Below are positions 4,291 to 60,675 of a DNA stretch of 64,000 nucleotides, one piece after another. Location of the stretch: contig CAYMZD010000003.1 in NCBI GenBank assembly GCA_964394855.1, positions 22,607 to 86,606 of the forward strand, written 5' to 3'. The stretch is from an uncultured Gammaproteobacteria bacterium (GTDB lineage Bacteria; Patescibacteriota; Microgenomatia; Daviesbacterales; UBA10151). Each line of letters opens with the position of its first letter. Position 1 is the first letter of the stretch. Made by a program: the position numbers and the translations under genes. Under the pieces are notes generated by a model, which was given only the letters and a program-made list of their open reading frames with translations, was not told the origin of the DNA and did not search any database.

Positions 4291-4304
4291 TCTGATTAAA
4301 TAAC

Positions 4305-43395: not shown

Positions 43396-44345
43396 TTAAA
43401 TATTTCCTCGAATAATTTTTGATATTTTTCTGCCACTTTATCCCAGGAGAAATTTTCCGCTTGTTTTCTTGGTAAATCATCCCAGTTTTTGGACAGCGTT
43501 TCCTTAATGGCCATGGCATATTTTTCTGAATTAGCAACATCAGTTAAGATTCCACTGTTGCCTACTATTTCTCTTCTGGGAGGATCATCCGGCGCTACAA
43601 CAGGCAATCCTGATGCCATGGCTTCCACATAAACTATGCCAAATGACTCCCTGTCCCAGCTAGGTAAAACGAACAAATCAGCGCTTCTGTAAATTTGTGG
43701 TAAGTCATTATACCCGGCAGATATTATTTGTAATCTGTTAGGAATTTTTTTCTCTCCCAGTTGAAGCAGTTTCTCTTTTTCTTCTCCTTCACCTACTATA
43801 ACCAATGAACCACTTACAAACTCCATGGCGTTAATTGTCCGCTCATGATACTTGTACCAGACCAGCGCCCCTACACTTAAGATAATTGGTCTGGGTAAGC
43901 GTAAATCCATTTTCTTCCCTTCTGGTTTAAATTTTTCCAAATCAACTCCATTGGGAATTTTTACTATTTTTGTTTTCCAAGCCCATTTTTTAGCCCACTC
44001 GGCCTCAAAATCTGTCAAGGCCACATAAACTTGAGGGGTAGTAATAGCTATATTCCAGATATCATCTTTGCCTGGACCAGCTTGTCCAGAAATTAAAGTT
44101 TTATATCCTTTAAATACTCTCCCCAGACTTACCTTTAGAGCTTGTAAGCGCCCATTGGTAGGAATTATTAAATCATATTCTCCATTAAGCATTCGGGAAA
44201 AAGAATCTGCCTGATTACCAACAATAATATCAACATCATGGGTTTTGCCTAATCTCTTGGAGAGCTCCTCTACATAAGTTTCAACTCCTCTGCTGACACT
44301 TTTTTGTAATCTTGATAAAAAAGCAATTTTCAATTTTTTTGCCAT
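43392..44345 (-). CDS. GT4-family glycosyltransferase
   Basis: ESFGIVYVEAMASGLPVV (E-x7-E). Confidence 0.7.
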   Translation of the reverse strand: MAKKLKIAFLSRLQKSVSRGVETYVEELSKRLGKTHDVDIIVGNQADSFSRMLNGEYDLIIPTNGRLQALKVSLGRVFKGYKTLISGQAGPGKDDIWNIAITTPQVYVALTDFEAEWAKKWAWKTKIVKIPNGVDLEKFKPEGKKMDLRLPRPIILSVGALVWYKYHERTINAMEFVSGSLVIVGEGEEKEKLLQLGEKKIPNRLQIISAGYNDLPQIYRSADLFVLPSWDRESFGIVYVEAMASGLPVVAPDDPPRREIVGNSGILTDVANSEKYAMAIKETLSKNWDDLPRKQAENFSWDKVAEKYQKLFEEIFK

Positions 44346-45682
44346 ACCTGAATTCCCCCTCTAATACTACCTACAATATGATAATTTTGTTTTATATAAT
44401 CAGTCACCTGTTGAGGTTGGTAAGTTCCTAATTCAAACCATTGACCTTTTTGCGGGGGTAACACAAAAATATACATTATTTCTTTTTCTTTTAAACCATT
44501 TATCAACTTTTCCTGCATTCCTTCAATTTCCATATACCAGACATAATTATCTATCCATGGTTTGGGCGGCAAAGTGGCAGTTAAAACATACTGTGTGGAG
44601 GAGATTCCCAAAAGATAAGTATAATCTTGAGGTCTTAAATATTTTTTTAAGTCACTGGTAAGCGCTAAATCACTTAATCCATAAAATCGAGGAGAAAGAT
44701 TTACAGTTGGCATTGCCCAAGTTAGCGAAAAAAGGAGAAAAATTATTATTGGTGTAAAAAGAATAAACTTAATCTTAGTCTGCTTTAAAAGAATTACCAG
44801 TAAAACAAAATAAACTGCCATAGCTGGCTGCAACCTAAAAAAAGCAAATCTGGGAAAGGCTGTAATAAAAAGCGCGATAAATGTTAAAAAAGTTAACCTC
44901 TCACCAAGATCCAATTTATTAAAATACTTCAAAGCCAACAATACACCGGGTGTAAATAAAAAGAATGTGGCTAATGCTTCCTTCATTGTTGGCAAACTGG
45001 AATATCCAGGAAATCGAGGATACCAAACAGCAGGAACTGTCACTGTCCAAAACAAAAAGTCATCCCAAATATTTTGGGAAAAAATATATGCTAAAACCCC
45101 CAAGGCAGGTATTGATGTCCCCAGCATTAGTAAAAAAATATTTTTCCATTCTTTAGTCATTAATAAATAAGCAGTTACGGGCAGAAAAGCTACTGCCACT
45201 TGTTGTTTTACTAAAGAAGCCATCATTAAAAAAAATCCAATTAAGAAAAATTTTTTCCAACCATTAAAATAAATCAATGCTACCAGGACTATCAAAATAA
45301 AAGGAGTGGTGGCCAAATCAAACCAGAGCATATTGCCTTCTGAAACCGATTGTACTAATACATAAAAAACAACAGGTAAGCAAGCTAGTAGTTTTTTACC
45401 TAAAATCTTTAAGGAAATTAAAAATATCAAAAAATCACAAAATAAAATTATTGTCCAAGTAAAAATCTGCAGAGTTTGCAAGCTATATCCAAACAAATTA
45501 TAAATGGATGATAGTATCAATACTAAAATGGGAACATAAGGCAAGGCTATATCTTTATAAATATCAAAACCATTATTTAGTAGGTAAGGGTAAGAGGTCA
45601 TTTCCGGCCAAGCCGTAAATTGAAGATTGACTAAAATTATTAAATGGATTATTAAAGTTCCAACAAATAAAATTATGAGCAC
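44330..45682 (-). CDS. Polytopic membrane protein of unknown function, possibly a polymerase or GT-C-like
   Basis: About 12 TM helices and an aromatic-rich C-terminal region. No diagnostic motif recognised. Confidence 0.35.
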   Translation of the reverse strand: MLIILFVGTLIIHLIILVNLQFTAWPEMTSYPYLLNNGFDIYKDIALPYVPILVLILSSIYNLFGYSLQTLQIFTWTIILFCDFLIFLISLKILGKKLLACLPVVFYVLVQSVSEGNMLWFDLATTPFILIVLVALIYFNGWKKFFLIGFFLMMASLVKQQVAVAFLPVTAYLLMTKEWKNIFLLMLGTSIPALGVLAYIFSQNIWDDFLFWTVTVPAVWYPRFPGYSSLPTMKEALATFFLFTPGVLLALKYFNKLDLGERLTFLTFIALFITAFPRFAFFRLQPAMAVYFVLLVILLKQTKIKFILFTPIIIFLLFSLTWAMPTVNLSPRFYGLSDLALTSDLKKYLRPQDYTYLLGISSTQYVLTATLPPKPWIDNYVWYMEIEGMQEKLINGLKEKEIMYIFVLPPQKGQWFELGTYQPQQVTDYIKQNYHIVGSIRGGIQVWQKN

Positions 45683-47252: not shown

Positions 47253-48070
47253 TTTATTAATCTCCTTTTGATTTTCTTTAGTGGGGTTTCCATAGCAGCT
47301 CGCGTTTTGTATAAAAAATCCGCTTTTTGCCAAGGTGAGGGAACAATTTTCGGCCTCTTAAGATAAAGTACTGATGGATATTTAAAATCTTTGGGGAAAG
47401 GTATTCCTAGCTCGTATTTGAACCTCATAATACGCTCCACCACTTGAGCATCTTTACTTGAGCGCCGAAGATGAGATGCATGTAAATATGGGGCATCTAC
47501 CACAGCTACCTCGTGAGGATCTCTTTCGTAAATTAATTTACCTTGCTTGTCAAAAAATCCTTCTCTTAAAAAACCTTGAGGATTAGGATGCACTTCTACA
47601 TGAAGTCCGGGGATATTTCTTTTAAAAACCCGCAAATTATAATGACCCACCCTTCCAGCTATGTGGTAGTCCCCTGCTATTTCTTCTTGATAGTGGTAAA
47701 CATCACCTAAAAGCATCAGAACGGGAACCACTATACATTCGGCTTTAGTTTTTTGAAGCTTCTGCCTTATTTTTTTTATTGAGCTATCCAACCAGATCTC
47801 ATCCCCATCCAAAAGCAACACCCAGTCAGATCTTGTTTCTTTAAGCATTTGCTGCCTTAGGTTGGCATGAGTAACCATTTCCGTATTGGCTGGAAACTGT
47901 CGCAAAACTATTTTGGGAGATTTAATAGTCTTAATAATCTCAACCGTCTGATCGGTTGATCCCAAATCATAAATTAAAATTTTATCCACAAAGTCTATTA
48001 CACTCATCAAAACAAACCAGATAAAATTCTCTTCGTTTCTCACAACCGTATTAGCCCAGACTGTTTTCAT
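47249..48070 (-). CDS. GT2-like glycosyltransferase (DxD = DGDE)
   Basis: TVVRNEENFIWFVLMSVIDFVDKILIYDLGSTDQT and LLLDGDEIW. Confidence 0.55.
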   Translation of the reverse strand: MKTVWANTVVRNEENFIWFVLMSVIDFVDKILIYDLGSTDQTVEIIKTIKSPKIVLRQFPANTEMVTHANLRQQMLKETRSDWVLLLDGDEIWLDSSIKKIRQKLQKTKAECIVVPVLMLLGDVYHYQEEIAGDYHIAGRVGHYNLRVFKRNIPGLHVEVHPNPQGFLREGFFDKQGKLIYERDPHEVAVVDAPYLHASHLRRSSKDAQVVERIMRFKYELGIPFPKDFKYPSVLYLKRPKIVPSPWQKADFLYKTRAAMETPLKKIKRRLIK

Positions 48071-49299
48071 GCTTTTTTGAATTTATAAATCATCCAAATT
48101 ACAGAAGATACTAAGCTAAAAATTTGCGATACCAAAACCGCTAAAGCTACCCCCATCATACCTAATCGTAAAATTAAGAAATATCCCAAAAAGGCTAAAA
48201 TTAAAAGTTGTCCCAGCGAGATAAAGACAAAAACTTTTGGTTTGGCAAAATAATAAAAAATGGCCTGATGTGCGGGAGTGGCCATGAGAAAAATGAGCTG
48301 GCTTAAGAAAAGTATGGCAAATATATTAATACTTTCCCCAAAAGCCTGACCATAAAAAAACGGGATGGCAAAATGGGCAAGAGGTATTCCCAGAAGTCCC
48401 AACAGAGCCAGTCCTACACTCAAAAGCTGCAGTCGTTTTAAATAATTTAAGATTTCCTGTTTATCTTTAGCTGCAGATAGTTTAGGAGCTATTACCGTGG
48501 CCAAAGCAGCCACTAGTTGTGGGACTACCATAGTTAGCTGGTTAGCAGCAGAATAAATTCCTAAGGAAGAGGCGGAAACTAGACGAGCCAACAAAAAGGT
48601 ATCCAGACGAGAACTAACTGCCGATATAAGCGAAGTCGAAGCAACCCATTTGTTGTAGTGGAAAAAGTCTACCGCCACACTATTTTCGTCTTTGACTACC
48701 ATGAAGCGAGGTAAGAATAAAAGCCCCAGAAAAAAACCCAAAAAGGGGATGATAATATAAGCCAAAAGTACGCTCTCCACAGTAAATACAGCAAGAATTA
48801 AAACTAAAATTAACCGCAATCCATTTAAACCAATGTTTAAAAGACTCCAAATTACATAATGCTGCATGGCTTGTAAACTGTGGGAAACAAAAGAAAAAAG
48901 TAATGCTCCGCCTACACCAATGAGGGATAACCTTAAAGGTAACTCTAACTCAACTTTTCCAAACACAAAAGAAGAAATAAAGGGCATTAATAACCATCCT
49001 ACACCCAAGATAATTACCCAAACGGCTAATTTTATTTTGAGACCCAATTTCATAAATCTTAAAGCTTTATCTTGATCTGCATTGATATATCTACCAACGA
49101 AGCGAATTAAACCTGTATCTGTCCCCAAATCAGCGATATCGGCAATTAGAGTAAGTGTCGTAATGGCCAAGGTTAATATACCGAAACTAGCCGGACCTAA
49201 AAACCTGGCAACCAGAATATAAAATAAAAGCCCTAATAGACCATTTAAAAAAGTCCCCAAAAATGTAATGCCTGTTTGGCCTAAAGTTTTTGCAAACAT
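48067..49299 (-). CDS. Wzx-type (MOP superfamily) polysaccharide flippase
   Basis: About 12 TM helices. N-terminus MFAKTLGQTGITFLGTFLNGLLGLLFYILVARFLGPASFGILTLAITTL is typical of PF01943 flippases. Confidence 0.75.
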   Translation of the reverse strand: MFAKTLGQTGITFLGTFLNGLLGLLFYILVARFLGPASFGILTLAITTLTLIADIADLGTDTGLIRFVGRYINADQDKALRFMKLGLKIKLAVWVIILGVGWLLMPFISSFVFGKVELELPLRLSLIGVGGALLFSFVSHSLQAMQHYVIWSLLNIGLNGLRLILVLILAVFTVESVLLAYIIIPFLGFFLGLLFLPRFMVVKDENSVAVDFFHYNKWVASTSLISAVSSRLDTFLLARLVSASSLGIYSAANQLTMVVPQLVAALATVIAPKLSAAKDKQEILNYLKRLQLLSVGLALLGLLGIPLAHFAIPFFYGQAFGESINIFAILFLSQLIFLMATPAHQAIFYYFAKPKVFVFISLGQLLILAFLGYFLILRLGMMGVALAVLVSQIFSLVSSVIWMIYKFKKA

Positions 49300-49314: not shown

Positions 49315-51894
49315 TCACTTTCTACTTTTAAAAGAAAGCTGACTTAAACAATAAAGAAAAAGCCCAACAACTGTTATGGTAGATATCACCATGCCCACCT
49401 GGACGCGGTCTTGCGGTTTATAATAAAGTTTAAGGTTTCTTTTGCTTATATCACCCACCCCAAAACCGTTAATCATGGAGTACACTGGTAGAGATTTTAT
49501 GGGGGCGTTAGTTAATTTCCATCCTTTGCTAAAACGATCAGAGAAAATAATCCATTTAGCGCTACGGGGTAAATTAATTAAATATTCCGTAGGATTTTTC
49601 TCTTGATAATCTATTTTTAAAAGAGTTAGTTTGCTAAACTCCTCGACAAGTTTTTTCTCATCATCAGGTAGAGAAAATGTGGGGAATTTCTGAATAAGTT
49701 TATCCGCAAAACTCAAGGCTCTATCAAAGTCTGCTTGAGGGAAAAAGGCCACTGCATTAATAGCTTGAAATCCTCCTAAATTTTTAAAAGTTACTGTGTA
49801 GCGACCAGGAGAAAGCTGGATAGGGCCTGAAAAATCCCAGTTAAATCGAGAGCCTGTATTTTTAACAATCTTTTCTTTGCTGGCAAAATTAATCTTAAGT
49901 CCGGCTGAGTCAGTGGAGGATAATGAGCGGGTAGCCAGATAGTAATTATCTATTTTTTTAACATCGACCTGATACATCATTTCCTCGTCTTTAATTGAAG
50001 AAAAATCCAAACCATTTTTAAATCCCAGATCATCTGTGCTGATTCCGTTCTTTAGGAGTTCATATTTCCACCGCAGATATTGATCAGGGCTATATCTTCC
50101 CCAATGACCACTAATAAAATCACTTTTCTTTAAGAAAAAATCTTGTAAAAAGGAAAGTTCTAAATCCTTTTTACTGGCATTTTGAAAAACCAACAGAGCA
50201 GAATCTTCAGGCAAAGATAATAAGTCATTTGGATTAAGTAAACCGTCCTCCACAAATAAAGCTCCTATTTTAATAAAATCCCGCCCACCATAAAAACTTC
50301 CATCACCCACTACAATCGCAACTTTTTCCTGGCCATAAATTTTATCTCGAGGAGTTGATACCTGGTAAACTGGAAAGTGGAGTCCCCAATCCAGTTTTTT
50401 AAACCCCAGGCTATCTATAAATTCTAAGAAAAGTTTTCTATTTTCTATATCCTTTTCTGAAAAATCTTTCTGACGGGGAGATTCGGGGAAAAAAGCATAT
50501 TTGATACCCAAGACTTCAAACCAAGAGGTTAAGTTATCATCATGTAAAAAATTAAACAGATCATAAGTACCGGAAATATTTAGGGCAAATGGTATTTCTT
50601 TATAAAGTTCACTGGCTGATAAGCCTTCTTTAGCTAAACCACTAAAGCCAAAAGGCGACCGTTCGGGAAACCATACTGACCTAAAAAAAGATTCATCTTT
50701 TTGTAAATTTTGATAAATTTTTTGGTAATCTCTATCAAACTGCCTTCCAGATAAACTGCCTGATAAATTACCCAAAAGAGCCGGCCAAATAAGTACCAAA
50801 AGATATAAATAAACCAAGATGGCGAGAAGACGAGAATGGAAACCCGTCATTGTTTTAGCCAATAAAATACCTGCGATGAGGGTAGCAGGTATAAAAAATT
50901 TAGTGGAGTCCCTAAAAGCATAAGCCAGCGGAAAATAGTTTATCAAAAACTCAAAGACTCTACCCATGGGTCCAAAAGGAGCACTAATTAAAAGAACAAA
51001 ACTTAAGAATAAAATATAGAATAATAAATTTTCTTTTCTCTTTTTAAATAGAAGACTGCCAAATAAAAGAAATGGTAAAAAGATAAAATACCAAGGAATA
51101 GCATTAATTTTACCAAATTCATTTTGAGGAAAATGAGGGTTAAAAATGGTTAGACCATGAAGGATTGTGATAAAACTCGCTGGCAAATCATTCTCCAGCT
51201 GGGCAACTGTCCCTCCATTAAAACCATTAAAAATAAATGGTATTATCCAAAAGGCATCAAGTAAAATAGTTAAAAGCAAGACATAAATAATATTTTTTGA
51301 TAAGTTATTAAATTCCAGCAAAAAATAAGTTAACAAAGCTAACATAGCCACTCTTAAGTCCGAGTTGGTTAAAAAGAAAAAGGTGAGTACTGATAAAAGA
51401 ATTTTTCCTTTATTGAAAAAATAAAGAGTCAGGGGAAACAACCCATATGAGAGGGCCAGACCAATTTGACCTCCATCAATTAAAAGCAAAAAATAAGTGT
51501 TAAAAGTATATAAAAGACTACCAAGCGTAGCTGCTAAACGATTTTCTACAAATTTTTTAATGAAAAGCCAGGAGCCTACAGCGGCAAGGATGGTAGCGGG
51601 AAAATAAAAAATCAACCTGATGGCTATATCAGCAGTAACTCCCAGCTTTCCCAAAACAGCCATTAAAAAGGTTGGTAAATAAAGCCAAAGCACTTGGAAC
51701 TGTGGACCACCAAAATTGTCATTTCGAAAATCCCAGGCTAACGGTTTTTGTAAAAGGCTGGATAAATTTTCCGGGAAAAAATAAGGAGCATCACCAAAAG
51801 TAAGAGGACCGGGAAGGAAAAAAGCTTTAAATACCAAAAGGTATGGAATTATAATAATAAAAAGGGGCCAAAAATTAATCTTATTTTTTATCAC
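49315..51894 (-). CDS. Large polytopic membrane protein, 859 aa, with YfhO-like topology (putative GT-C glycosyltransferase)
   Basis: N-terminal multi-TM region of about 400 aa, a soluble domain of about 400 aa, and one C-terminal TM. This is the size and layout of Bacillus YfhO-type enzymes. Inference only. Confidence 0.4.
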   Translation of the reverse strand: MIKNKINFWPLFIIIIPYLLVFKAFFLPGPLTFGDAPYFFPENLSSLLQKPLAWDFRNDNFGGPQFQVLWLYLPTFLMAVLGKLGVTADIAIRLIFYFPATILAAVGSWLFIKKFVENRLAATLGSLLYTFNTYFLLLIDGGQIGLALSYGLFPLTLYFFNKGKILLSVLTFFFLTNSDLRVAMLALLTYFLLEFNNLSKNIIYVLLLTILLDAFWIIPFIFNGFNGGTVAQLENDLPASFITILHGLTIFNPHFPQNEFGKINAIPWYFIFLPFLLFGSLLFKKRKENLLFYILFLSFVLLISAPFGPMGRVFEFLINYFPLAYAFRDSTKFFIPATLIAGILLAKTMTGFHSRLLAILVYLYLLVLIWPALLGNLSGSLSGRQFDRDYQKIYQNLQKDESFFRSVWFPERSPFGFSGLAKEGLSASELYKEIPFALNISGTYDLFNFLHDDNLTSWFEVLGIKYAFFPESPRQKDFSEKDIENRKLFLEFIDSLGFKKLDWGLHFPVYQVSTPRDKIYGQEKVAIVVGDGSFYGGRDFIKIGALFVEDGLLNPNDLLSLPEDSALLVFQNASKKDLELSFLQDFFLKKSDFISGHWGRYSPDQYLRWKYELLKNGISTDDLGFKNGLDFSSIKDEEMMYQVDVKKIDNYYLATRSLSSTDSAGLKINFASKEKIVKNTGSRFNWDFSGPIQLSPGRYTVTFKNLGGFQAINAVAFFPQADFDRALSFADKLIQKFPTFSLPDDEKKLVEEFSKLTLLKIDYQEKNPTEYLINLPRSAKWIIFSDRFSKGWKLTNAPIKSLPVYSMINGFGVGDISKRNLKLYYKPQDRVQVGMVISTITVVGLFLYCLSQLSFKSRK

Positions 51895-51916
51895 AGGCTA
51901 AATTGTAGCTAATTAT

Positions 51917-53308
51917 ATGCTAAACAACAACTTGAATGTAATCCTCTTAACTGTCTTTGCATTTATCCTCCGCCTGAAATTTATGTCTCCTTGGCTTGAG
52001 GACTGGGATTCAGTTCAGTTTGCCATTGCCATGGATTCTTACTCTTTATCCGAAGGGATACCGCATGCTCCAGGATACCCCCTATATATTTTGTTGGGTA
52101 AATTTTTATTTTTATTTTTTCATGATCATAATTTGTCTTTGTCTTTTTTAAGTAGCCTTTTAGGATCTTTATCTGTTGTGCCGCTTTACTTATTAGCCAA
52201 TAAGATGTTTAATCAAAAAGTAGCACTACTTTCAAGTCTAATATTTATTTTTTCTCCTGTTCACTGGACCCTGTCGGAAATTGCTCTTACCAATATGCCC
52301 GGTCAGTTTTTTCTCCTACTTTGGATCTATTTATTATACAAATTTATGAATAATTTTAAGGCAAAGGTAATGCTCTCGGGTTTGGCCGGTATCATTTTGG
52401 GGGTGCGGTTTACAGAATTTCCCATCATTATCTCTTTACTTATACTAATATCATTAAAAAAATTTAATATCAGAAAAGCTCTTTTTACTATCTGCTCGTT
52501 TTTTCTAGGATTAGCCTCATGGATGGTTCCTCTAATGTTAATAAGCGGGATTAATCAATTCCTTGAAAGTTATGGTTTTATTGCTAATTATATTTTTAAA
52601 CATGATGCTCTTTTAGACCAGGGAAGATACGGTCTTCAAACAATCAACATCAGATTTGAAAATTTTCTACTCCTACTTAAGTGGTCATATACAGTACCAT
52701 TTACGATACTCGGAACAATAACAGTTATTTTCGTAATAAAAAATCATTTATTTAGGGAGTTTAAATATTTATTCTTAAGTCTTTGGGCTGCTTCTTATCT
52801 ACTACCCCTCCTGTTTTTTTATAATCTAGAAGTTACTCGATATACTCTACCCCTTTTACCACCTCTGGCTATATTAACTACCACACAACTTTATAAATTA
52901 ACAAAAAATAAGATCGCTCTCGCTGGGGTAATAGGTATCATTTTGGGGTTTCTTATTTATCAGTCACAAGATCAGGTTAGGAGATTTAAAAATAGCGTTC
53001 CACCCACAGTTGCATCAGTAGATTATGTCAGGAAAAATTTTGCTCCACACAATACAACTATTATCCCCACAAATACTTTACGTCATTTCCAATATTATGG
53101 ATCAGAGTTTCCATTAATAGATTTAAAAAATGCCAATTACAATCAAGATTTCAAAAATAAAACTATCATCATAGATTTTCCCGGAACAAAAGATAAATTT
53201 AAGGAGTTATCAAACTATGATATAACTAAAAGGGTAGATTTTTTCGGAGATAAAGATATTTATAATAGAATAAATAAAGTTTCAATATATATTTTGAAAC
53301 CAAAATAA
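51917..53308 (+). CDS. DUF2723/TMEM260-like polytopic membrane protein (putative GT-C)
   Basis: The first loop EDWDSVQFAIAMDSYSLSEGIPHAPGYPLYILLGK matches my recollection of the DUF2723 hallmark (WDSGEF ... HPPGYP). About 11 TM helices and a C-terminal soluble tail. Confidence 0.5.
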   Translation: MLNNNLNVILLTVFAFILRLKFMSPWLEDWDSVQFAIAMDSYSLSEGIPHAPGYPLYILLGKFLFLFFHDHNLSLSFLSSLLGSLSVVPLYLLANKMFNQKVALLSSLIFIFSPVHWTLSEIALTNMPGQFFLLLWIYLLYKFMNNFKAKVMLSGLAGIILGVRFTEFPIIISLLILISLKKFNIRKALFTICSFFLGLASWMVPLMLISGINQFLESYGFIANYIFKHDALLDQGRYGLQTINIRFENFLLLLKWSYTVPFTILGTITVIFVIKNHLFREFKYLFLSLWAASYLLPLLFFYNLEVTRYTLPLLPPLAILTTTQLYKLTKNKIALAGVIGIILGFLIYQSQDQVRRFKNSVPPTVASVDYVRKNFAPHNTTIIPTNTLRHFQYYGSEFPLIDLKNANYNQDFKNKTIIIDFPGTKDKFKELSNYDITKRVDFFGDKDIYNRINKVSIYILKPK

Positions 53309-53319
53309 GAAAATATTTT

Positions 53320-53955
53320 ATGAATAATAAACAGTTAAAAAAAATTTGGAACCAGGTTCCTCCTGATTACTATGAAGTGGGTATCAAGAGAAATTTTTTT
53401 CAATGGCTTTGGTTTTATTGGAAAGCCCAAAACTTAATTAATTTTATTAAAAATAAGGATTTTCACACCATACTTGATATAGGGTGTGCTGCGGGAACAT
53501 TAACTAATAAAGTTTCCCAAATATTACCTAATTCTAAAATCACTGGAGTAGATGTTTATTCTAGCGCACTAGCTTTCGGTAAAAAAAGATACCCTCATAT
53601 TAATTTTGTATTATCAGATGCTCATAAATTACCTTTTAAGAAAAACTCATTTGATTTAATTATTTGCATTGAAACAATTGAACACGTTTCTGATCCAGAA
53701 AAAGTCTTTATGGAAGTGAAACGTGTTCTTGGGCAAAACGGAACTTTTATTTTAATCATGGATTCTGGATCTTGGCTTTTTAGAATTGTCTGGGAAATAT
53801 GGGAAAAATCTAGGGGTAAAGTCTGGCAAGGAGCACATCTTCATCCTTTCCATCATAATGAATTGGAGAAATTGATTAAAAAATCAGGATTTAAAATTAT
53901 TAGAAAAAAATTTTCCAATCTGGGAATGGAAGTTTCTTTTGTATTGAAAAAATAA
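53320..53955 (+). CDS. Class I SAM-dependent methyltransferase (Methyltransf_11-like)
   Basis: ILDIGCAAGTLTNKV (motif I), TGVDVYSSAL, SFDLIICIETIEHVSDPEKVFMEVKRVL. Confidence 0.8.
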   Translation: MNNKQLKKIWNQVPPDYYEVGIKRNFFQWLWFYWKAQNLINFIKNKDFHTILDIGCAAGTLTNKVSQILPNSKITGVDVYSSALAFGKKRYPHINFVLSDAHKLPFKKNSFDLIICIETIEHVSDPEKVFMEVKRVLGQNGTFILIMDSGSWLFRIVWEIWEKSRGKVWQGAHLHPFHHNELEKLIKKSGFKIIRKKFSNLGMEVSFVLKK

Positions 53956-53956
53956 C

Positions 53957-55405
53957 TTAATAGGGAAACCTAGCAAGCACTGGTAGGGCTTTATCATTAA
54001 AATCATTGGGTAATGGATTGATATCTTCAAAGTACACTTTAACACTCTTATCGTTAAATAGAAGTTGCAGGGCATTAGCTCCAGATAAAATATAAAAAGC
54101 CTGTTTAGATGAGCTACCCCACTCATCAGCTATAAAAGGATAATGAGGGTCATTTTTAAAATAGAAGATAGTTGACTTTACTGGATGAGGATATGTGTTT
54201 TTTACATCGGTCAGTAAAGCCTTGGCAGCCGTGGCTCTCTTGGCGGCCCAATAAGTAATCTTATTTAATTTACTAGTCTGATAAGAAATTATAAACAAGC
54301 CCAAGATAAAAAAAATCGCCCAAAATCTTAAAAATTTCTTTTGATAAAGTGGTGCTAAAAAGGTGGCCAATAGAAGAGAAAACCATACTAGCGGTAGTTC
54401 AAGATAATAAATAAACTTTTTTTGAGGAAATAATAAAAATGGGGAAATAGATACCAAAAATAAGCATATCAACAAGGTAGTCTTGCCCAAAGAGATCGCA
54501 AATTTCTTATATCTAACTAATAAAGTGATAATAGACGCAAAAAGGAAAAAAAGTGCGGGAACAACAATCTGGACATACCAAGGATACCACTTAATAAAAT
54601 TGGCATTGACGGTAAATTTCGGACCGACAAAATCTACTACCACCTCGGATATGCCAAAACTCCACAAAATATACCAACCCAAACTATTAATAAAAGTTTT
54701 TAAATTAAAAATTGGCTGGTAAACCGACTGGGGGGGCAAACTGGTAAACAAAGATGTAGAAATTAAATAAATAAAGGAGATTAAAAAATACCAAATGAGA
54801 TGAAGGGAAACTTTTTTATAAAGAAATATTTCTAAAATTAAAAGGATTATTGGCAAAGTAATGGCTATTTCATGGCTAAAAATAGCCAAGGAAAAAGAAA
54901 TTATCGACAAAATATAAAATTTTTGTTTTTGACTGGCTTTAAAAATTAAATAAAAAAGGGTGCAGAGTAAAATAAAAAAAGTCGCCAAAAGTGTTTGTAC
55001 TGATGCCAAATAATAGATCTCCACATTATGAACACTACTTAGTAAATAAATTAATACCGCTATACTTGCTGTGATTTGATTTTTGAAAATTTTATGGGCC
55101 AGCTGAAATAGCAACACACCAATAGCCACGATTAAAAAAAGATTAACCAGATGATAAGGAAACGGATTTAAATTAAATAATTTATACATTATCAAATTGA
55201 AAGTTTCTCTTGATAAAGGACGATAAAAAGCATATTCTGCCTGTTTTAAGATAAAGAAACCAGTAATGTCAGTTAACTCTTTATCTGCCACTGTGTTTAA
55301 ATGAAAAAAATCATCTTGGGAAAAATATGAAAAAAGAGCATTAAAATTTATAAATAAGATAAATAAAATACCCACTAAAAACATATAAATTAATTTAATG
55401 TTCAT
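53957..55405 (-). CDS. Polytopic membrane protein, possible GT-C (DD motif in first loop)
   Basis: FSYFSQDDFFHL in the first extracytoplasmic loop, about 12 TM helices, and a C-terminal soluble domain of about 100 aa. Confidence 0.4.
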   Translation of the reverse strand: MNIKLIYMFLVGILFILFINFNALFSYFSQDDFFHLNTVADKELTDITGFFILKQAEYAFYRPLSRETFNLIMYKLFNLNPFPYHLVNLFLIVAIGVLLFQLAHKIFKNQITASIAVLIYLLSSVHNVEIYYLASVQTLLATFFILLCTLFYLIFKASQKQKFYILSIISFSLAIFSHEIAITLPIILLILEIFLYKKVSLHLIWYFLISFIYLISTSLFTSLPPQSVYQPIFNLKTFINSLGWYILWSFGISEVVVDFVGPKFTVNANFIKWYPWYVQIVVPALFFLFASIITLLVRYKKFAISLGKTTLLICLFLVSISPFLLFPQKKFIYYLELPLVWFSLLLATFLAPLYQKKFLRFWAIFFILGLFIISYQTSKLNKITYWAAKRATAAKALLTDVKNTYPHPVKSTIFYFKNDPHYPFIADEWGSSSKQAFYILSGANALQLLFNDKSVKVYFEDINPLPNDFNDKALPVLARFPY

Positions 55406-55414: not shown

Positions 55415-58006
55415 TTAATCTTTATCTATTGACTGATTTAAAATTATTTTGTCCATAATTACTTCCATAGGAATATTGGGGAATCGAACCACCAGTCCTT
55501 TTAGTATAGTTCCGCCCACAGGCAATTTAAAGTTATAGGTATGAAAATTACCGTCCATCATAATCGGAGTTTGTATTTTTATATCTTCTTGTCTGGATAA
55601 ATATTTATCAGACAAAGGATAAATCGATAAATTTAAATAATTTTGAACTCCATTTTGTAATTCTGCTGCCTCATGTTCATTTTTTATCTCTGCAAATGGA
55701 TGCTCTATAATAAAATCCGCCAAATCAGAATCTATTTGACTAGAGTTTTTAAGAATTTCCAATTCTTGAATACCCGGAAAATCATCTTTTGGGGTCTCTA
55801 AAATAACTATTTTAAAAAATCTGGCATTTACTGGAGGAAAAACATCCTTGATTTGGCCATTGATGACACTATCCCTTTTTGCTTTATAAATTGTTCTCCA
55901 CTCATCAGTCTCATCCTTTTTAATTTGATACTCATATATACTAGGTATACGCGGTTCATATGAGAAAAGTCGTACTTCTGAAAAAGTATAATCCTCCCCA
56001 AAATTAACTACAATAAAGGGCTTTTTACCCTTTACCCATTCAACTTTATTTGCCTCCCACCTAGTATTGGGATTACCATCAACAATATACTTAGCCACAT
56101 TTTTTGCTTCATTGTCGCTGGAAAATACTTGAGCAACCTGTCTAAAATAACTTCTTTCCCCAAGATAAGTGACCAAAGCCTCCCGATAGTTAGGATCATG
56201 AATTATGCTAAAATCTATTTTTTGAGGCCTTTTTGTAATAGAACTGTCAACATAAGGATACTTTTTAATTTGATTTACCAGACTACTGGCTTTCATGACA
56301 ATTTGTAAATTCACAGGTTGATATGATGGAAAATAAGTATCAAATTTAACTAATCCATTAATACTTCTGCTACCCTTGTCATTACTGACTATCATAGATC
56401 TATACACAACTTGGTTATTATTTATTTCTATCCCAGGACCATCAATATAATTTTCAAACAGTTTAGCGCTCTTTAAGTCTATCTTTTCACCCTGCGGACG
56501 GATTTGAGAATTTAATTTATCAATATTAATTAATTGATGCTTGCTGTTATAGAAAAAGTGATAAGCTTTTGTAAAATCATTACTCTTTTTATCTTTAATT
56601 AACTCCTCGTAAGTATCGACAATTTTGATATTATCGATTTTGACTTTATAAAAACTGGCCAGTGAGCTTTCAGTGGAATATACACCGGTTCTTAATATAT
56701 CCCAAAATAAATTTTGCACAACTGGATCAGCAACCGTATCAAAAAGAAATAAAGTTTTACCCTCAAGTGAAGGCACTTCTTTTTTAAGATCGGCAAAGAA
56801 AATCTTTGTAGCTACACTTCTTTTTATCAGTTCTCCTTTAATCTGTGAACCAGCCATGAGATGGATGTAGATGAGTGCTACTGCCAATATAAACCCCATT
56901 ACTTTTAAAAGAATTCTTTTGTTGGAAAAAAATAGGATTTTTAAATAAATTGCTAAAATTACAGCAAAAAAGGGAAGCCCGAAGAGAAGATATCTTTGGG
57001 TTGATGGATGAATGGTAGATGGATTAACTAAATAATAATTAATATACCCTGCAATCCAGAGCAGAACAAAAAAAACTATAACCTTTTTTAAACTAGGAGA
57101 AATTTTGATGAATAGAAAAAATGAAATGATTACTAAAATAAAAGCAGTAGCCAAGATAGCTGGATCAGTACTAGAAGAAAGGTCAGAGGGAATTAAAAAG
57201 TTACTCAAATTTATCACCAATGTACCCAGTGATGAAAAATTCAAATATGGAAGGTAATCTTTGATTTGGCTTGTGCCTAGGTTGCTTCTTTCAATGCCAA
57301 AAAAATCAAGAATATGCAAGATATAAATCAAGAAAGTTATCAAAAAATATGGGGAAAGTCGCAAAAACGAATTTCTAAAAATTTTAAGATTTAGACTAAA
57401 TTTGCTGGAAAAATATAAATCTGAAAAAAATAGTAGAGGGAAAAGGCTGTGAGCTCTTTGGGTAAAAAGAAGGGTTAGCGCACCATAAAAAATAATTATG
57501 GAAAAAAATAAAAAAAATGATTTCTTTTGTAGGTAAGTCTGATAAAGTAACAGGAGTAAAATTACACCAATCATATAGATGAGGCTGGAGACTGAAACAG
57601 AAGACATAAACATTATTTCTGCTCCAACATATCCCGAGGCCAGTATCAAACCCGAAAGATAAGCTATTAAATAATCTTTCGTAACTCTGAAAACAAAAAA
57701 GTAAACTACCAAGCAAAGCAGAATATACAAAATTATTGATGCTCCAAAGTAGACAGTAGGATTTTCCTTAAAAAATAAATATATTGGATAATAGCTTAAA
57801 GACCAACCCTGATAAGGAAAATGGAAAAGACCTCCTTGTTGTAAACGATAAAGCAGTACATAATCATCTCTCCAAAAATATAGATTCCCAACGAAACCAT
57901 ATGTCAAAAAAACTATTACTGAATACGATAATACTATCAAAAAAAGAAAAGATTTTTTCCACATATCATCTGCCCATAATATAATCGATATGATATACTC
58001 ATTCAA
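55415..58006 (-). CDS. Large polytopic membrane protein (863 aa, YfhO-like layout) with a C-terminal discoidin (F5/8 type C)-like carbohydrate-binding domain
   Basis: N-terminal multi-TM region with FWRDDYVLLYRL in the first loop. The C-terminal KYIVDGNPNTRWEANKVEWVKGKKPFIVVNFGEDYTFSEVRLFS matches the discoidin DG-x-x-x-T-x-W ... vDLG core. Confidence 0.5.
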   Translation of the reverse strand: MNEYIISIILWADDMWKKSFLFLIVLSYSVIVFLTYGFVGNLYFWRDDYVLLYRLQQGGLFHFPYQGWSLSYYPIYLFFKENPTVYFGASIILYILLCLVVYFFVFRVTKDYLIAYLSGLILASGYVGAEIMFMSSVSVSSLIYMIGVILLLLLYQTYLQKKSFFLFFSIIIFYGALTLLFTQRAHSLFPLLFFSDLYFSSKFSLNLKIFRNSFLRLSPYFLITFLIYILHILDFFGIERSNLGTSQIKDYLPYLNFSSLGTLVINLSNFLIPSDLSSSTDPAILATAFILVIISFFLFIKISPSLKKVIVFFVLLWIAGYINYYLVNPSTIHPSTQRYLLFGLPFFAVILAIYLKILFFSNKRILLKVMGFILAVALIYIHLMAGSQIKGELIKRSVATKIFFADLKKEVPSLEGKTLFLFDTVADPVVQNLFWDILRTGVYSTESSLASFYKVKIDNIKIVDTYEELIKDKKSNDFTKAYHFFYNSKHQLINIDKLNSQIRPQGEKIDLKSAKLFENYIDGPGIEINNNQVVYRSMIVSNDKGSRSINGLVKFDTYFPSYQPVNLQIVMKASSLVNQIKKYPYVDSSITKRPQKIDFSIIHDPNYREALVTYLGERSYFRQVAQVFSSDNEAKNVAKYIVDGNPNTRWEANKVEWVKGKKPFIVVNFGEDYTFSEVRLFSYEPRIPSIYEYQIKKDETDEWRTIYKAKRDSVINGQIKDVFPPVNARFFKIVILETPKDDFPGIQELEILKNSSQIDSDLADFIIEHPFAEIKNEHEAAELQNGVQNYLNLSIYPLSDKYLSRQEDIKIQTPIMMDGNFHTYNFKLPVGGTILKGLVVRFPNIPMEVIMDKIILNQSIDKD

Positions 58007-58008: not shown

Positions 58009-60033
58009 GTGAAGAACTTTTTTATTAATCCGCCAATAATTACTATAACTCTAGTTTATATTCTTTTAATTCTCCTGATGTTGCCGCTTCGGAATGTAGC
58101 ATATTTGGATGATTTCGCCTATATCAAAAATGTCGAAGAGTTTATTGAAACCGGTAATTTAAGGATAACTGATTGGGCTTCCACCAGCTTAGTTTTCCCT
58201 ATTTTATGGGGCGCTTTATTTGCCAAACTTTTTGGCTTTTCCATCAAGATATTGCATGTATCCAATTTGGTCTTATTCTATTTTGGCCTGATGGCATTTT
58301 ATGGTATATTAAGGCAGTTTAATCTTGATAAATTTAAATCTGTCGTCTTTACCCTATTTCTTTTAAGCTACCCTTGGGTTTTCCAATATCTTTTTTCATT
58401 TAACTCTGATACTTTTTATGTCTCTTTAATAAACTTCACGATTTATTTTTATCTTAAGGGTTTGAGTACCAATAAATTGTTTTATTATTTTTTGGGATCT
58501 TTATTCGCAGGATTTTCTTTTTTAACCAGGCAATTGGCTATTACATTTCCCATTGCCATCGGTATAACTTTATTTTTAAAATTTAAAATTGATAAAAAGG
58601 TTGACTGGTCGGCCTTAGCGGTATCCTTATTGCCCATAGTTTTAATTATCATCGGTTATTATAAATGGATCTCCATAGCGGGAGCTTCTGCAGCCGGTTA
58701 TATTTTTTTTAATGAATACACCAAAAGGGCAATAATAGATAGACTGATTCCTCCAAATTTGCAAAGATTTGGTGACACCAGCAGACTTTATTGGGATTTA
58801 TTTTTGCAAAGGCCGTCTATATATTTCGTGTCCATTAATAACCACATACTCCCATTTTTCCTTTTATTTGCGCTTCAAATAACTAAATTTAGAAAATTTA
58901 TAGTATCAAATTTTAAGTCCTTAGCAACAACATCTTTAATTTTTTCTTTTTATGTTTTTTTAGTGTGGACTGTCTGGCAAGATAAAATTCTCTACCGGAT
59001 CCCCCAAACAATTTTTAGTATGGATAAAATGATTGATAACTGGCAATTTATTTGGCCTAGACTTTTCTTTTTAGGTATTCCTTTTTGGATTGGTATTTTT
59101 TTATTAACCTTTAATAAAATTAGGAAATTATTTTTTATTTTAAAACGGCCGTTAATTTCAGGAAGAGTATTTTTTTCTATATTTGCCCTTTTTTCTTTTT
59201 TTCTTTTTTATAAAGCCTTTGAAGATATTTTTTCCACTAATTTAAGACCTCAATTATATACTGATTCATTGCTTCGCTCCAGTGCTTTTTTGAGAACTAT
59301 TTATGTATTATTAAACCCTACCATTATCATCGAGACGTTTAAAGAAATTTGGATAATTTTACTAATTCTGTTTTTGATTTTCATATTTTTTTATGTAACC
59401 ATTATTAAAAATAAGCTAAGAATAAAGAATCTAAATTTACCCATTTTATTGATAACCTTGTTATTTTTAGGACACTTTTCCATCACCAATTTTTTAGCCC
59501 ATTCCCATTGGGAAGAATATACCATTGCTTTTGTACCATTTATAATTTTAATATTGGCACTGATATTAAAAAATATTCCCCTATCTAAAATTAGGGCTGT
59601 TATTTTAATTTTTCTCTTACTGTTTTTTTCTTTACAAATTACCAGAAATCGCTATCAGGAAAATGGCGCTACTTGGGAACTGGGAACTCAAATGGTGAGA
59701 TCTGGGATAGATCCAAAACGGGTGGTAGTTTTTAATATGTCATGGCGTCGCTACTGGCTCTGGCAAGATGCTTTTAATAAGATGGTTAACCAAAAATACA
59801 GCGGGGATAAATATAAAGTCAGGCCGGCAGAGTTTAACCCAGTTGATGAAAAATTACTGGAAGGAGTTTTTTACCAAACAAGGACTATTAATACCAGTGA
59901 AGATATCTCTCGTGGCTATGATGATAAATCTGTTATTCTTCAATCAGAACCTACTTGGCTTTTTGCAGGTAAAAGTTTTATTGTCTGGAAAAAATTTATT
60001 GTCACCAAGGAGTTTCACAAAGCAGGGACTTAA
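58009..60033 (+). CDS. Polytopic membrane protein, 674 aa, possible GT-C
   Basis: YLDDFAYIKNVEEF in the first loop and about 14 TM helices. The C-terminal roughly 120 aa are soluble. Confidence 0.4.
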   Translation: MKNFFINPPIITITLVYILLILLMLPLRNVAYLDDFAYIKNVEEFIETGNLRITDWASTSLVFPILWGALFAKLFGFSIKILHVSNLVLFYFGLMAFYGILRQFNLDKFKSVVFTLFLLSYPWVFQYLFSFNSDTFYVSLINFTIYFYLKGLSTNKLFYYFLGSLFAGFSFLTRQLAITFPIAIGITLFLKFKIDKKVDWSALAVSLLPIVLIIIGYYKWISIAGASAAGYIFFNEYTKRAIIDRLIPPNLQRFGDTSRLYWDLFLQRPSIYFVSINNHILPFFLLFALQITKFRKFIVSNFKSLATTSLIFSFYVFLVWTVWQDKILYRIPQTIFSMDKMIDNWQFIWPRLFFLGIPFWIGIFLLTFNKIRKLFFILKRPLISGRVFFSIFALFSFFLFYKAFEDIFSTNLRPQLYTDSLLRSSAFLRTIYVLLNPTIIIETFKEIWIILLILFLIFIFFYVTIIKNKLRIKNLNLPILLITLLFLGHFSITNFLAHSHWEEYTIAFVPFIILILALILKNIPLSKIRAVILIFLLLFFSLQITRNRYQENGATWELGTQMVRSGIDPKRVVVFNMSWRRYWLWQDAFNKMVNQKYSGDKYKVRPAEFNPVDEKLLEGVFYQTRTINTSEDISRGYDDKSVILQSEPTWLFAGKSFIVWKKFIVTKEFHKAGT

Positions 60034-60039
60034 ATAGAA

Positions 60040-60675
60040 ATGAAAACCATACTTTTAACAGGAGCAACTGGTTTTATCGGTTCATATCTTTTGCCAGAGC
60101 TGGTCAAAGATTTTAAAGTTAAATGCTTGATAAGGCAGGATTTAAAATTTACACATCCTAATGTAATTTTAATTAAAGGAAACCTTCGTTCAGAAAAAGC
60201 CATCAGAGACTCCACCAGGGGAGTATCAGCTATTATTCATCTGGCAGCCCAAAAATATAATATTAAAGACGCCGCCAAGATAAGAAAAGTTAATGTCGGA
60301 GGAACTATTAACTTGTTAAAAAATGTAAGTGGCGCTCATTTTATATATGGCAGTACCTGGCTTGCGGCATATCCACAAAAAACAGGACTTTATGGTCTAA
60401 CTAAAAAAAGGGCCGAGGAGGCTATTAAAAAAAGCGGTGCAGATTATACTATTTTACGATTACCGCACATTTTTAGCCATAAAAAATCTCATCAGATTTT
60501 TATCAGATACATATTACCTGTTTATTTAAGATTAAGGTACGGCGTTAAACCTATCTATCAGCCGATTGAAATAACCAAGGTGTGTAAAGCTATCAAAAGA
60601 ATCATTAACAATAAAAAATTTTATAGAAAATCTTTTTATGTAGTTGATGAAAAAACCCTACAACCTGTCATTTAG
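60040..60675 (+). CDS. Short NAD(P)-binding Rossmann protein (atypical SDR/epimerase family), 211 aa
   Basis: MKTILLTGATGFIGSYLLPEL has the GxxGxxG motif, and YGLTKKRAEE is a YxxxK motif. It is shorter than classical extended SDRs. Confidence 0.6.
   Translation: MKTILLTGATGFIGSYLLPELVKDFKVKCLIRQDLKFTHPNVILIKGNLRSEKAIRDSTRGVSAIIHLAAQKYNIKDAAKIRKVNVGGTINLLKNVSGAHFIYGSTWLAAYPQKTGLYGLTKKRAEEAIKKSGADYTILRLPHIFSHKKSHQIFIRYILPVYLRLRYGVKPIYQPIEITKVCKAIKRIINNKKFYRKSFYVVDEKTLQPVI

Follow-up and report, generated by a model that had tools for sequence, protein, structure and literature searches.

The genes considered here lie head to tail on the plus strand of the window, the 64-kb stretch of DNA that was analysed as a whole (Table 1). 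The DNA is that of an uncultured, groundwater-type bacterium, probably Candidatus Daviesbacteria, a Microgenomates lineage of the Candidate Phyla Radiation (CPR). The first gene encodes a membrane glycosyltransferase of the GT-C type and the second a methyltransferase, and the gap of only 11 bp between the stop codon of the former and the ATG of the latter indicates that the two are probably co-transcribed. The pair diverges from the gene for an 859-residue protein on one side and converges on the gene for a 482-residue membrane protein on the other, where a single base pair separates one stop codon from the other (53955 and 53957). The GT-C gene and the 859-residue gene each begin at the first start codon past an in-frame stop; hence, neither has a start further upstream. 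Among the approximately 54 real genes of the window, only three plus-strand islands were found (4359..4967, 51917..53955, and 58009..60675). This arrangement is as a sequence-only reading of the DNA had described it, with both plus-strand ORFs present, a divergent spacing of exactly 22 bp and few strand switches. The two motifs picked out in that reading, EDWDSVQF and GIPHAPGYP, are residues 28–35 and 47–55 of the GT-C protein.

Table 1. Features of the gene pair and its borders (positions in the window)
Feature	Position	Strand	Remarks
GT-C membrane glycosyltransferase, 463 aa	51917..53308	+	ORF list, ATG start
Class I SAM-dependent methyltransferase, 211 aa	53320..53955	+	ORF list, ATG start
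AftD-like GT-C, 859 aa	49315..51894	-	GTG start at 51894, divergent from 463-aa GT-C
Polytopic membrane protein, 482 aa	53957..55405	-	weak PMT_2-like match, convergent with methyltransferase
Divergent intergenic gap, 22 bp	51895..51916		between GTG of 859-aa gene and ATG of GT-C
Candidate promoter TTTAAA-N18-TATAAT	51826..51855	+	within first ~25 codons of 859-aa gene

Judged by its sequence, the 463-residue protein belongs to the GT-C glycosyltransferases, and its connection with DUF2723/TMEM260 is weak but real. Its match to PF11028 (TMEM260-like, formerly DUF2723) scored 26.8 bits (E 5.1e-6), a small margin above the gathering cut-off of 24.2, and spanned residues 47–183 and profile positions 13–175 of 179. 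The DUF2723 assignment, which the sequence-only reading had left to a Pfam search to decide, thus holds in that the hit was found, but PF11028 is not the top-scoring family in clan competition: over the overlapping residues it ranked third behind PMT (33.4 bits) and PMT_2 (32.8 bits), both of the same superfamily. The PMT match was itself limited to residues 67–162 (profile positions 77–176 of 245). No TPR family was detected in the Pfam scan of the protein, which ends at residue 463, and NCBIfam gave no informative match. When profiles were searched against the PDB, TMEM260 was the nearest solved structure (E 5e-5 and 1.5e-6 with two family profiles, versus 0.01 for ArnT), and no PMT chain was returned at E values up to 10. 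The relatives present a similar picture: 37 of 40 members of the broad family matched PMT_2 and 35 matched PF11028, eight distant relatives of approximately 500 residues scored 24–52 bits and 19–38 bits, respectively, and PF11028 is the precomputed annotation on approximately 85 of 103 relatives. We conclude that the protein belongs to a short DUF2723/PMT_2-like family, of approximately 15,000 representative clusters (E up to 1e-3), and is an ordinary example of a known enzyme class.

The protein has approximately 11 membrane helices, its N terminus inside and its C terminus outside, followed by an alpha/beta domain of approximately 100 residues (360–463) outside the membrane. The helices show the GT-C core arrangement (7 + 4, N-in/C-out) of TMEM260, the human protein O-mannosyltransferase (PDB 9RQL), in which approximately 11 helices are likewise followed by an outside alpha/beta domain. 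The first outside loop bears E28-D29-W-D31-S and H50-A-P-G-Y-P, and it is the conserved acidic residues of this loop, together with the fold, that place the protein in the GT-C superfamily. D31, P49, P52, G53, and R164 are invariant in an alignment of 40 family members (21–31% identity), E28 and D29 are nearly invariant in family alignments, and H50 is invariant within the close clade. H50 aligns with H67 of TMEM260 in the sequence AHPPGYPL, the H-x-P-G-Y-P motif being common to both proteins. In TMEM260, D52 and H67 are essential for donor binding (10.64898/2026.03.17.711096). We infer that D31, also an invariant Asp upstream in the first outside loop, could be the equivalent of D52; D31 precedes H50 by 19 residues and D52 precedes H67 by 15, the stretch was left unaligned by HMMER, and a short-peptide PDB search comparing the EDWDS motif with TMEM260 D52 returned nothing relevant.

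The two proteins also differ. TMEM260 has 707 residues, including a TPR acceptor-binding domain whose "fingers" recruit the acceptor peptide and whose mutation lowers activity to approximately 10% (10.64898/2026.03.17.711096), whereas the 463-residue protein has no such domain. Neither R264 and Y267 of the donor-loading loop nor D441, the catalytic base located in the Rossmann-like domain, could be matched to residues of the shorter protein; TMEM260 also has R355 in helix 10. Unlike TMEM260, moreover, the protein is bacterial and is encoded within a polysaccharide cluster. Among bacterial GT-C enzymes of the ArnT/PMT_2 class (GT83/GT39-type), ArnT was approximately 10,000-fold weaker than TMEM260 by profile search, EDWDS...HxPGYP replaces the loop motifs of PMT and ArnT, and a MIR domain was absent from the Pfam scan.

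The co-oriented partner was correctly called a methyltransferase in the sequence-only reading, and the Pfam scan identified its class I SAM domain (Methyltransf_11, 79.9 bits; other matches to Methyltransf_25/31, 74.7 and 74.4 bits; all above cut-off). It has no hydrophobic segment and is, therefore, soluble; as a soluble, SAM-dependent enzyme it must act in the cytoplasm. None of its 286 homologs, which are of the Patescibacteria type, is specifically named. No NCBIfam equivalog reached the cut-off, the BioC, UbiE, and RlmA models scoring far below it, and the PDB matches were uncharacterised methyltransferases, with no diagnostic similarity found to a known sugar methyltransferase.

Comparison with related loci demonstrated that the pair is a conserved two-gene operon and not an insertion, so that the idea of a two-gene module was upheld. 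In seven of ten independent close loci (GT-C at least 40% identical), a methyltransferase ortholog follows the GT-C directly, 8–26 bp downstream by tblastn, and in relatives with a downstream methyltransferase the stop and start codons are 1–2 bp apart or overlap by 8–17 nt. In one further close locus the methyltransferase lies upstream instead, at a distance of 2 kb and in the same orientation. No methyltransferase was seen beside the GT-C in any of 13 loci with a GT-C below 40% identity, nor in L003; since it is missing in this distant half of the family, the GT-C is not dependent on it. Conservation extends to the flanking genes. L002, the most closely related locus, in which the proteins are approximately 60% identical, keeps the order 859-residue gene, GT-C, methyltransferase, 482-residue gene, together with the 22-bp gap, and the pair is retained in L005 despite a wider neighbourhood that differs from that of L002. 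A gene like that for the 482-residue protein (PMT_2, 24.3 bits, under the 26.1 cut-off) converges right after the methyltransferase or the GT-C in L002, L003, L010, L011/L021, L020, L024, and L099. In L099 the order is a GT2-GT-C fusion, the methyltransferase, and the convergent gene, and this locus has a second GT-C and methyltransferase pair.

The GC content of the pair (0.32 and 0.30) is slightly lower than that of the upstream genes (0.34–0.38), and GC3 is 0.28 and 0.24, versus 0.26–0.30 in the neighbours, the value for the methyltransferase (0.236) being the lowest in the region. The low-GC block is not confined to the pair, and extends over the large membrane-protein genes of both strands from 52 to 60 kb. 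GC3 is neighbour-like, and the block reflects GC1 and GC2, that is, the amino-acid composition of membrane proteins. No mobile-element genes, tRNA, or repeats were seen flanking the pair; the only hit of the Rfam and tRNA scans was a distant tRNA-Val (4216-4290).

Because the divergent gap is only 22 bp, the promoters must lie within or overlap coding sequence, as had been suspected from the gap. A perfect minus-strand TATAAT (51917-51912) overlaps the GT-C start codon. In L002, ATG replaces the GTG of the window and 21 of the 22 gap bases are the same; the 40-nt segment 51892-51931 is 95% identical to L002, versus a regional mean of 67% (sd 13%), and there are other 40-nt segments within the 859-residue gene with the same degree of conservation. 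On the plus strand, TTTAAA-N18-TATAAT (10/12 matches), located approximately 62 bp ahead of the GT-C start codon, had the top score in a promoter and terminator scan in which the site total was no higher than the shuffled expectation. The element falls within 34 nt (51824-51857) that match L002 exactly, the second-longest such run in 6.2 kb, the overall identity to L002 being only 67%. This conservation is suggestive of a promoter for the plus-strand pair within the first codons of the 859-residue gene. In the same scan, no terminator was detected either in the gap within the pair or downstream of it.

The surrounding cluster encodes an initiating phosphoglycosyl transferase (Bac_transf), GT4 and GT2 enzymes, a Wzy_C-like protein, a Wzx flippase (a Polysacc_synt protein at 48067..49299), and at least five GT-C-type proteins. 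At least five of the last lie within approximately 26 kb (34–60 kb), and five within approximately 11 kb (49.3–60.0 kb), a density suggesting that the envelope glycan is in large part completed outside the membrane. The AftD-like 859-residue neighbour has, in its C-terminal part, CBM-like beta-sandwich domains as well as a membrane helix, and an 863-residue neighbour bears an F5/8 type C domain; these carbohydrate-binding domains favour a glycan over a protein as acceptor. Likeness to the mycobacterial AftD/AftA/AftB/Emb arabinosyltransferases (identity approximately 10–13%) is a property of the 859-residue neighbour and not of the 463-residue protein. Profile-to-sequence comparison of the latter with the 859-, 482-, and 674-residue membrane neighbours revealed no significant similarity, and thus these are not recent paralogs. 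Two further methyltransferases adjoin glycosyltransferases in the cluster. A GT-C and an NAD-epimerase-like protein are encoded side by side at 58009..60675, and carbamoyltransferase genes lie beside the GT-C in L004 and L005.

A donor for the GT-C is suggested by its relatives. In P0036 and P0104, a GT2 domain of approximately 225 residues is fused to the N terminus of the GT-C; its best matches were polyprenyl-phosphate-sugar synthases, with AglJ first (117 bits, the top NCBIfam match), followed by ArnC, PgfS, PpgS, and a Dol-P-hexose transferase. The fusions support a lipid-linked sugar donor. Stand-alone GT2 copies are found no more than 6 kb from the GT-C in five other loci (L002, L005/L008, L011, L014, and L015), with a DUF2304 membrane protein accompanying the GT2 in L005. 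In the three-component systems GtrA/GtrB/GtrC, CsbB/GtcA/YfhO, and the GT136 pentofuranose system (PMC11127046; reviewed in PMC8035078), a GT2 makes a polyprenyl-phosphate-sugar, and once this has been flipped, a GT-C transfers its sugar to a glycan outside that is either complete or still growing; relatives of the 463-residue protein likewise have the GT2 fused to or beside the GT-C. Our protein belongs, however, to a sequence family distinct from GtrC, YfhO, and GT136. Auxiliary donor-tailoring enzymes (epimerases) are known in such systems, but a methyltransferase is not a described component. In addition, neither a GtrA-type (or MATE) flippase nor, beside the pair, a full-length Dpm1/GtrB-like GT2 was recognised in the window; the GT2 search yielded partial N-terminal matches at 42562..43395 and 877..2730.

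A similar trio of enzymes is combined in the Agl pathway of Haloferax volcanii, which N-glycosylates an archaeal S-layer protein: AglJ, a Dpm1-like GT2 (a Dol-P-hexose synthase); AglP, a cytoplasmic SAM methyltransferase whose substrate is the lipid-linked glycan; and AglS, a PMT_2-like GT-C (a Dol-P-Man mannosyltransferase) by which the last sugar is attached outside. The scores here were all far below the family cut-offs and did not demonstrate orthology.

The interpretation that we favour, and consider fairly probable, is that the pair is a conserved operon of an envelope-glycan cluster in which the GT-C adds a sugar from a polyprenyl-phosphate donor outside the membrane and the methyltransferase tailors a sugar of the pathway. 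A GT2 of the Dpm1/GtrB/AglJ type would make the polyprenyl-monophosphate-sugar on the inner face, and after flipping, the GT-C would move the single sugar to an acceptor at the outer side of the cytoplasmic membrane. This acceptor would most probably be a surface glycan that the cluster itself makes. The invariant first-loop residues Asp31 and His50, together with Arg164 from a later outside loop, may hold the donor sugar and phosphate, by comparison with D52 and H67 of TMEM260. The methyltransferase probably methylates a pathway sugar before export, either on the lipid-linked donor or on a lipid-linked glycan intermediate. Several observations weigh against this proposal: the GT2 and flippase missing beside the pair, a C-terminal domain that is neither CBM nor TPR, so that the protein itself does not point to an acceptor, and the methyltransferase that is missing in all 13 distant loci and lacks sugar-methyltransferase similarity. 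Furthermore, TMEM260 and the fold matches PMT, STT3, and DPY19 all modify proteins.

The last point leads to an alternative that is clearly less probable, namely, that the GT-C is a protein O-glycosyl (O-mannosyl-type) transferase that uses a polyprenyl-phosphate donor to modify Ser/Thr of surface or secreted proteins such as S-layer proteins, pilins, or membrane-anchored proteins. The rank of TMEM260 among PDB matches, the PF11028 annotations, and the TMEM260-like layout all accord with it. Streptococcal GT-C enzymes O-glycosylate Ser/Thr-rich regions with donors made by GtrB/PgfS (PMC12041528), and the fused GT2 resembles PgfS. The protein lacks the acceptor-recruiting TPR domain, however, and PMT and PMT_2 outscore PF11028; a search of the 64-kb window for Ser/Thr-rich surface proteins revealed no candidate acceptor, and the setting is a Wzx/Wzy polysaccharide-type cluster with CBM-bearing GT-C neighbours. 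Protein O-glycosylation, the second option put forward in the sequence-only reading, was not borne out by these results.

Another alternative concerns the methyltransferase, which might be a housekeeping or small-molecule enzyme that shares a transcript with the GT-C but has no functional link to it. Its purely generic class I matches, its absence beside the GT-C in L003 and the distant half of the family, and the location of the two active sites on opposite sides of the membrane could be explained in this way. We think that this is unlikely in view of the reading frames that abut or overlap in seven of ten close loci, even where the neighbourhood differs, at least 20 pairs of GT-C and methyltransferase matches judged by proxy to share a contig, the two methyltransferases beside glycosyltransferases elsewhere in the cluster, and the second pair in L099. 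Very improbable is an ArnT-like role in which the GT-C modifies a lipid (a membrane glycolipid or lipoglycan anchor), because resemblance to ArnT in fold is a feature of GT-C enzymes in general, the window showed no genes for the biosynthesis of lipid A or lipoglycans, and the context is a polysaccharide cluster. Least credible of all is that the pair was recently acquired and inserted into an older cluster, a view for which its strand switch, slightly lower GC, and low methyltransferase GC3 would speak: horizontal transfer is rejected by GC3 and by synteny, given that the four-gene arrangement and the 22-bp gap recur in a relative at approximately 60% identity, the arrangement is found in part in many loci, the flanking genes travelling with the pair, the low-GC block covers both strands, and the flanks are free of mobile elements.

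Within the favoured reading of an envelope-glycan operon, one could envision that the methyltransferase acts directly on the donor, so that polyprenyl-P-sugar becomes polyprenyl-P-O-methyl-sugar at the cytoplasmic side and the GT-C places a ready-methylated sugar on the surface, and that CPR bacteria possess cassettes of a GT-C plus a donor-tailoring enzyme. We regard this as a doubtful extension, for which the epimerase-like pair, the second pair in L099, and the carbamoyltransferases are hints.

The pair extends known principles of glycobiology to a new lineage and is unsurprising to a glycobiologist; no publication about DUF2723 proteins of bacteria, or about the GT-C enzymes of CPR, emerged from a literature search. 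The GT2 fusions provide a concrete donor hypothesis for the short DUF2723/PMT_2-like family, and its compact bacterial members, which have the HxPGYP donor motif without TPR, could help to study the catalytic core of TMEM260. CPR/Patescibacteria are tiny, mostly uncultured, and believed to live bound to host cells; their surface chemistry is, accordingly, central to their biology, yet it is hardly known. If donor-tailoring cassettes do exist, they would represent a modular, outside-in decoration of the envelope in organisms of minimal metabolism.

The two plus-strand ORFs, the motifs quoted in the sequence-only reading and the 22-bp divergent gap are all present as it described them (ORF list, sequence). 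EDWDSVQF and GIPHAPGYP are residues 28-35 and 47-55 of the translated 463-aa protein, and 22 bp separate the GTG of the 859-aa gene from the GT-C ATG (51917). No earlier start is possible for either gene, the codon in use being in each case the first start codon past a stop. In L002, the closest related locus, an ATG occupies the exact position of the GTG, and the gap is kept with 21 of its 22 bases identical. The GT-C stop and the methyltransferase start are 11 bp apart. Strand switches are rare in the 64 kb, as had been claimed, with just three plus-strand islands (4359..4967, 51917..53955 and 58009..60675) among some 54 genes. The stop codons of the methyltransferase gene and the convergent 482-aa gene lie 1 bp apart (53955-53957); no terminator-like hairpin was found, and transcripts of the two strands would be expected to overlap.

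Features of the window and of the glycan cluster that holds the gene pair
Feature	Coordinates	Strand	Source
ParB, FtsW, FtsZ, FtsA, FtsQ, MurG, MraY, Mur ligases, PBP, MraW, MraZ, RecO, tRNA synthetases	1-26 kb
Double GT2 and ABC-2 transporter pair	1-26 kb
DUF4012, initiating Bac_transf phosphoglycosyl transferase, seven GT4, several GT2 (glycan cluster)	27.4 kb onward
Hexapeptide acyltransferase, Wzy_C-like protein, Wzx flippase, three methyltransferases (glycan cluster)	27.4 kb onward
Epimerases, PLP decarboxylase, many polytopic GT-C-type proteins (glycan cluster)	27.4 kb onward
PMT_2 protein	34087..35532
Wzy_C-like protein	35519..36928
PMT_2 protein	41173..42558
Unannotated 450-aa ORF	44330..45682
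859-aa ORF, AftD-like, GTG start at 51894	49315..51894	-	ORF list
463-aa GT-C ORF	51917..53308	+	ORF list
211-aa methyltransferase ORF	53320..53955	+	ORF list
482-aa ORF, convergent, weak PMT_2	53957..55405	-	ORF list
Membrane N-terminus and F5/8 type C protein	55415..58006
PMT_2 protein (674 aa)	58009..60033	+

Three overlapping Pfam families from one superfamily exceeded their cut-offs in the 463-aa protein: PMT (33.4 bits), PMT_2 (32.8) and TMEM260-like (PF11028, formerly DUF2723; 26.8). The proposed DUF2723 match therefore exists (cut-off 24.2 bits), but it falls below the PMT and PMT_2 scores, and the assignment is marginal. In an exhaustive profile search the family ran to 14,976 representative clusters at E up to 1e-3, of which 1,200 remained at E up to 1e-30. 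Most members are 450-540 aa long, and common to them are a D-S-V motif, HQPHPPGY, an invariant Arg (R164) and a C-terminal domain with 'R-H-x-x-Y-Y'. Among 40 diverse members, PMT_2 matched 37 and PF11028 35, always weakly; eight soil-metagenome members scored 19-38 bits with PF11028 and 24-52 with PMT_2. In NCBI, members appear as 'DUF2723 domain-containing protein' or as 'glycosyltransferase family 39 protein'. The description that suits them best is a short GT-C family of their own between PF11028 and PF13231, not core DUF2723.

By sequence profile the nearest solved structure is TMEM260, the human protein O-mannosyltransferase, whose structure is absent from the fold libraries. The close-clade profile gave E values of 5e-5 for TMEM260 and 1e-3 for AglB, and the broad-family profile 1.5e-6 for TMEM260 (residues 54-317), 0.01 for ArnT and 0.03 for STT3A. 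The profile alignment places H50 ('PHAPGYP') on TMEM260 H67 ('AHPPGYP'), which, together with D52 of the same loop, touches the mannose of Dol-P-Man and is essential, as is D52 (cryo-EM preprint, 10.64898/2026.03.17.711096). D31, invariant in the broad-family alignment, is the likely counterpart of D52, an equivalence that we infer, the D31/D52 stretch itself not being aligned. Unlike TMEM260, the 463-aa protein has no TPR domain, which in TMEM260 recruits the acceptor peptide and on which ~90% of activity depends (10.64898/2026.03.17.711096). The DUF2723 reading was a useful lead. The protein belongs to a known enzyme class, as a new member that is uncharacterised, and its tie to TMEM260 is remote but specific.

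Gene fusion gives the strongest sign that the donor would be a polyprenyl-P-monosaccharide from a Dpm1/GtrB-type enzyme. In two relatives, P0036 (688 aa) and P0104 (684 aa), an N-terminal GT2 domain of ~225 aa runs straight into GT-C helix 1, and its best NCBIfam matches (AglJ, 117 bits; ArnC; PgfS; PpgS; Dol-P-hexose transferase) are all polyprenyl-monophosphate-sugar synthases. Stand-alone homologs of this domain lie at most 6 kb from the GT-C gene in five other loci, and at L099:6001-8705 a GT2-GT-C fusion is followed 2 bp downstream by a methyltransferase ortholog and then by a convergent 482-aa-like gene. Such donor supply is the logic of bacterial three-component systems (PMC11127046, PMC8035078). 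No Dpm1/GtrB-type GT2 adjoins the gene pair in the window, so that the synthase would need to be encoded elsewhere.

As for the acceptor, guilt by association with the neighbours points to a glycan. Pfam gave no match for the 859-aa 'hypothetical' protein, whose family was found only in CPR (204 matches). The protein was modelled as an AftD-like GT-C followed by beta-sandwich domains that resemble CBM35/CBM6 and, at the C terminus, a membrane helix; its invariant residues (D35, D140-G-G-Q143, D179/R181 and R328-D329) may mark the active site. A set of GT-C enzymes that bear carbohydrate-binding ectodomains looks like a system that builds and decorates glycans outside the cytoplasm, as in mycobacteria or in GtrC/YfhO/GT136 systems, and not like a protein O-mannosylation pathway. 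That the acceptor is instead a protein seems unlikely, given these ectodomains and the lack of any Ser/Thr-rich candidate acceptor encoded in the 64-kb window; the idea keeps some weight because certain bacterial GT-C enzymes do glycosylate Ser/Thr-rich protein regions (PMC12041528). A protein O-glycosylation system, one of the two options first raised, is not demonstrated.

The second gene is indeed a co-oriented methyltransferase. Its product is a typical class I SAM enzyme (Methyltransf_11, 79.9 bits in Pfam) with no hydrophobic segment and no equivalog-level NCBIfam match, and its PDB matches are uncharacterised methyltransferases. Linkage was counted in 10 independent loci with enough flanking DNA and a GT-C at least 40% identical. 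The ortholog lies directly downstream on the same strand in seven, 2 kb upstream on the same strand in one, and is absent from two; below 40% identity it was found in 0 of 13 loci. The link is therefore conserved within one clade, and in relatives the methyltransferase frame directly adjoins the GT-C frame or overlaps it by 8-17 nt. The pair is a conserved operon, predicted to encode a GT-C glycosyltransferase that works outside the cytoplasm with a lipid-linked sugar, and a methyltransferase that works within it. With SAM in the cytoplasm and an outward-facing GT-C active site, the methyltransferase would have to act before export, and its substrate would be a nucleotide sugar, or a lipid-linked sugar or glycan. 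That its target is the lipid-linked donor, the pair being one of several cassettes that couple a GT-C with a tailoring enzyme, we consider quite improbable.

Similar arrangements occur nearby and in relatives. A second plus-strand pair of the same layout (58009-60675) joins the 674-aa PMT_2-type GT-C, after 6 bp, to an apparently truncated 211-aa NAD-dependent epimerase/dehydratase-like protein, and could represent a further cassette of a GT-C with a donor-tailoring enzyme. The L099 contig carries a second, unrelated pair (491-2502; 474-aa GT-C, PMT_2 weak, and 196-aa methyltransferase), which suggests that the pairing recurs. In two other loci, a convergent carbamoyltransferase gene (Carbam_trans_N/C; L004:7430-9136, L005:7997-9706), accompanied by a 70-aa ORF, directly follows the GT-C gene or the GT-C-methyltransferase pair, and may encode a further sugar-tailoring activity.

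The proposal that the narrow gap lodges promoters in coding sequence receives suggestive support. The best promoter-like site of the region, TTTAAA-N18-TATAAT (51826-51855, +), falls among the first ~25 codons of the 859-aa gene, in a stretch of 34 nt shared without mismatch with L002 (loci 67% identical overall), and a perfect minus-strand TATAAT (51917-51912) overlaps the GT-C start codon. However, the promoter scan as a whole showed no enrichment relative to shuffled sequence, and conservation is just as high in other coding stretches. Shine-Dalgarno-like motifs were found at 0 of the 4 starts (859-aa, GT-C, methyltransferase and 482-aa genes) and at 15 of 52 window-wide. The longest exact match to L002 in 6.2 kb (67% identical overall), 44 nt at 51479-51522 in the N-terminal coding region of the 859-aa gene, may reflect strong constraint on the peptide or a regulatory element embedded there.

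Insertion of the pair into the cluster was unsupported and has been dropped: the 859-aa and 482-aa genes accompany it in relatives (the identical four-gene layout in L002 at ~60% protein identity, partial versions in many loci), and GC3 (GT-C 0.28, methyltransferase 0.24) is like that of the neighbours (0.26-0.30). The low-GC block at 52-60 kb covers both strands, arises at first and second codon positions and reflects membrane-protein amino-acid composition.

Identical proteins occur in a 164-kb NCBI contig and a Logan assembly, and the named relatives all come from Candidatus Daviesbacteria, Microgenomates, Woesebacteria or Patescibacteria. Housekeeping and cell-division/cell-wall genes lie in the first 26 kb. 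There, a tRNA-Val (anticodon CAC; 4216-4290, -) overlaps the annotated 5' end of ORF 3451..4314 (ABC-2 permease), whose real start must therefore be further downstream, and a tblastn GT2-domain match (566-880, -) just beyond the 3' end of ORF 877..2730 suggests a further GT2 gene, absent from the ORF list, running off the left window edge. From 27.4 kb to the window end extends a single large glycan cluster, with GT-C-type membrane proteins unusually dense at 34087-60033. The gene pair is an integral part of this CPR envelope-glycan cluster.
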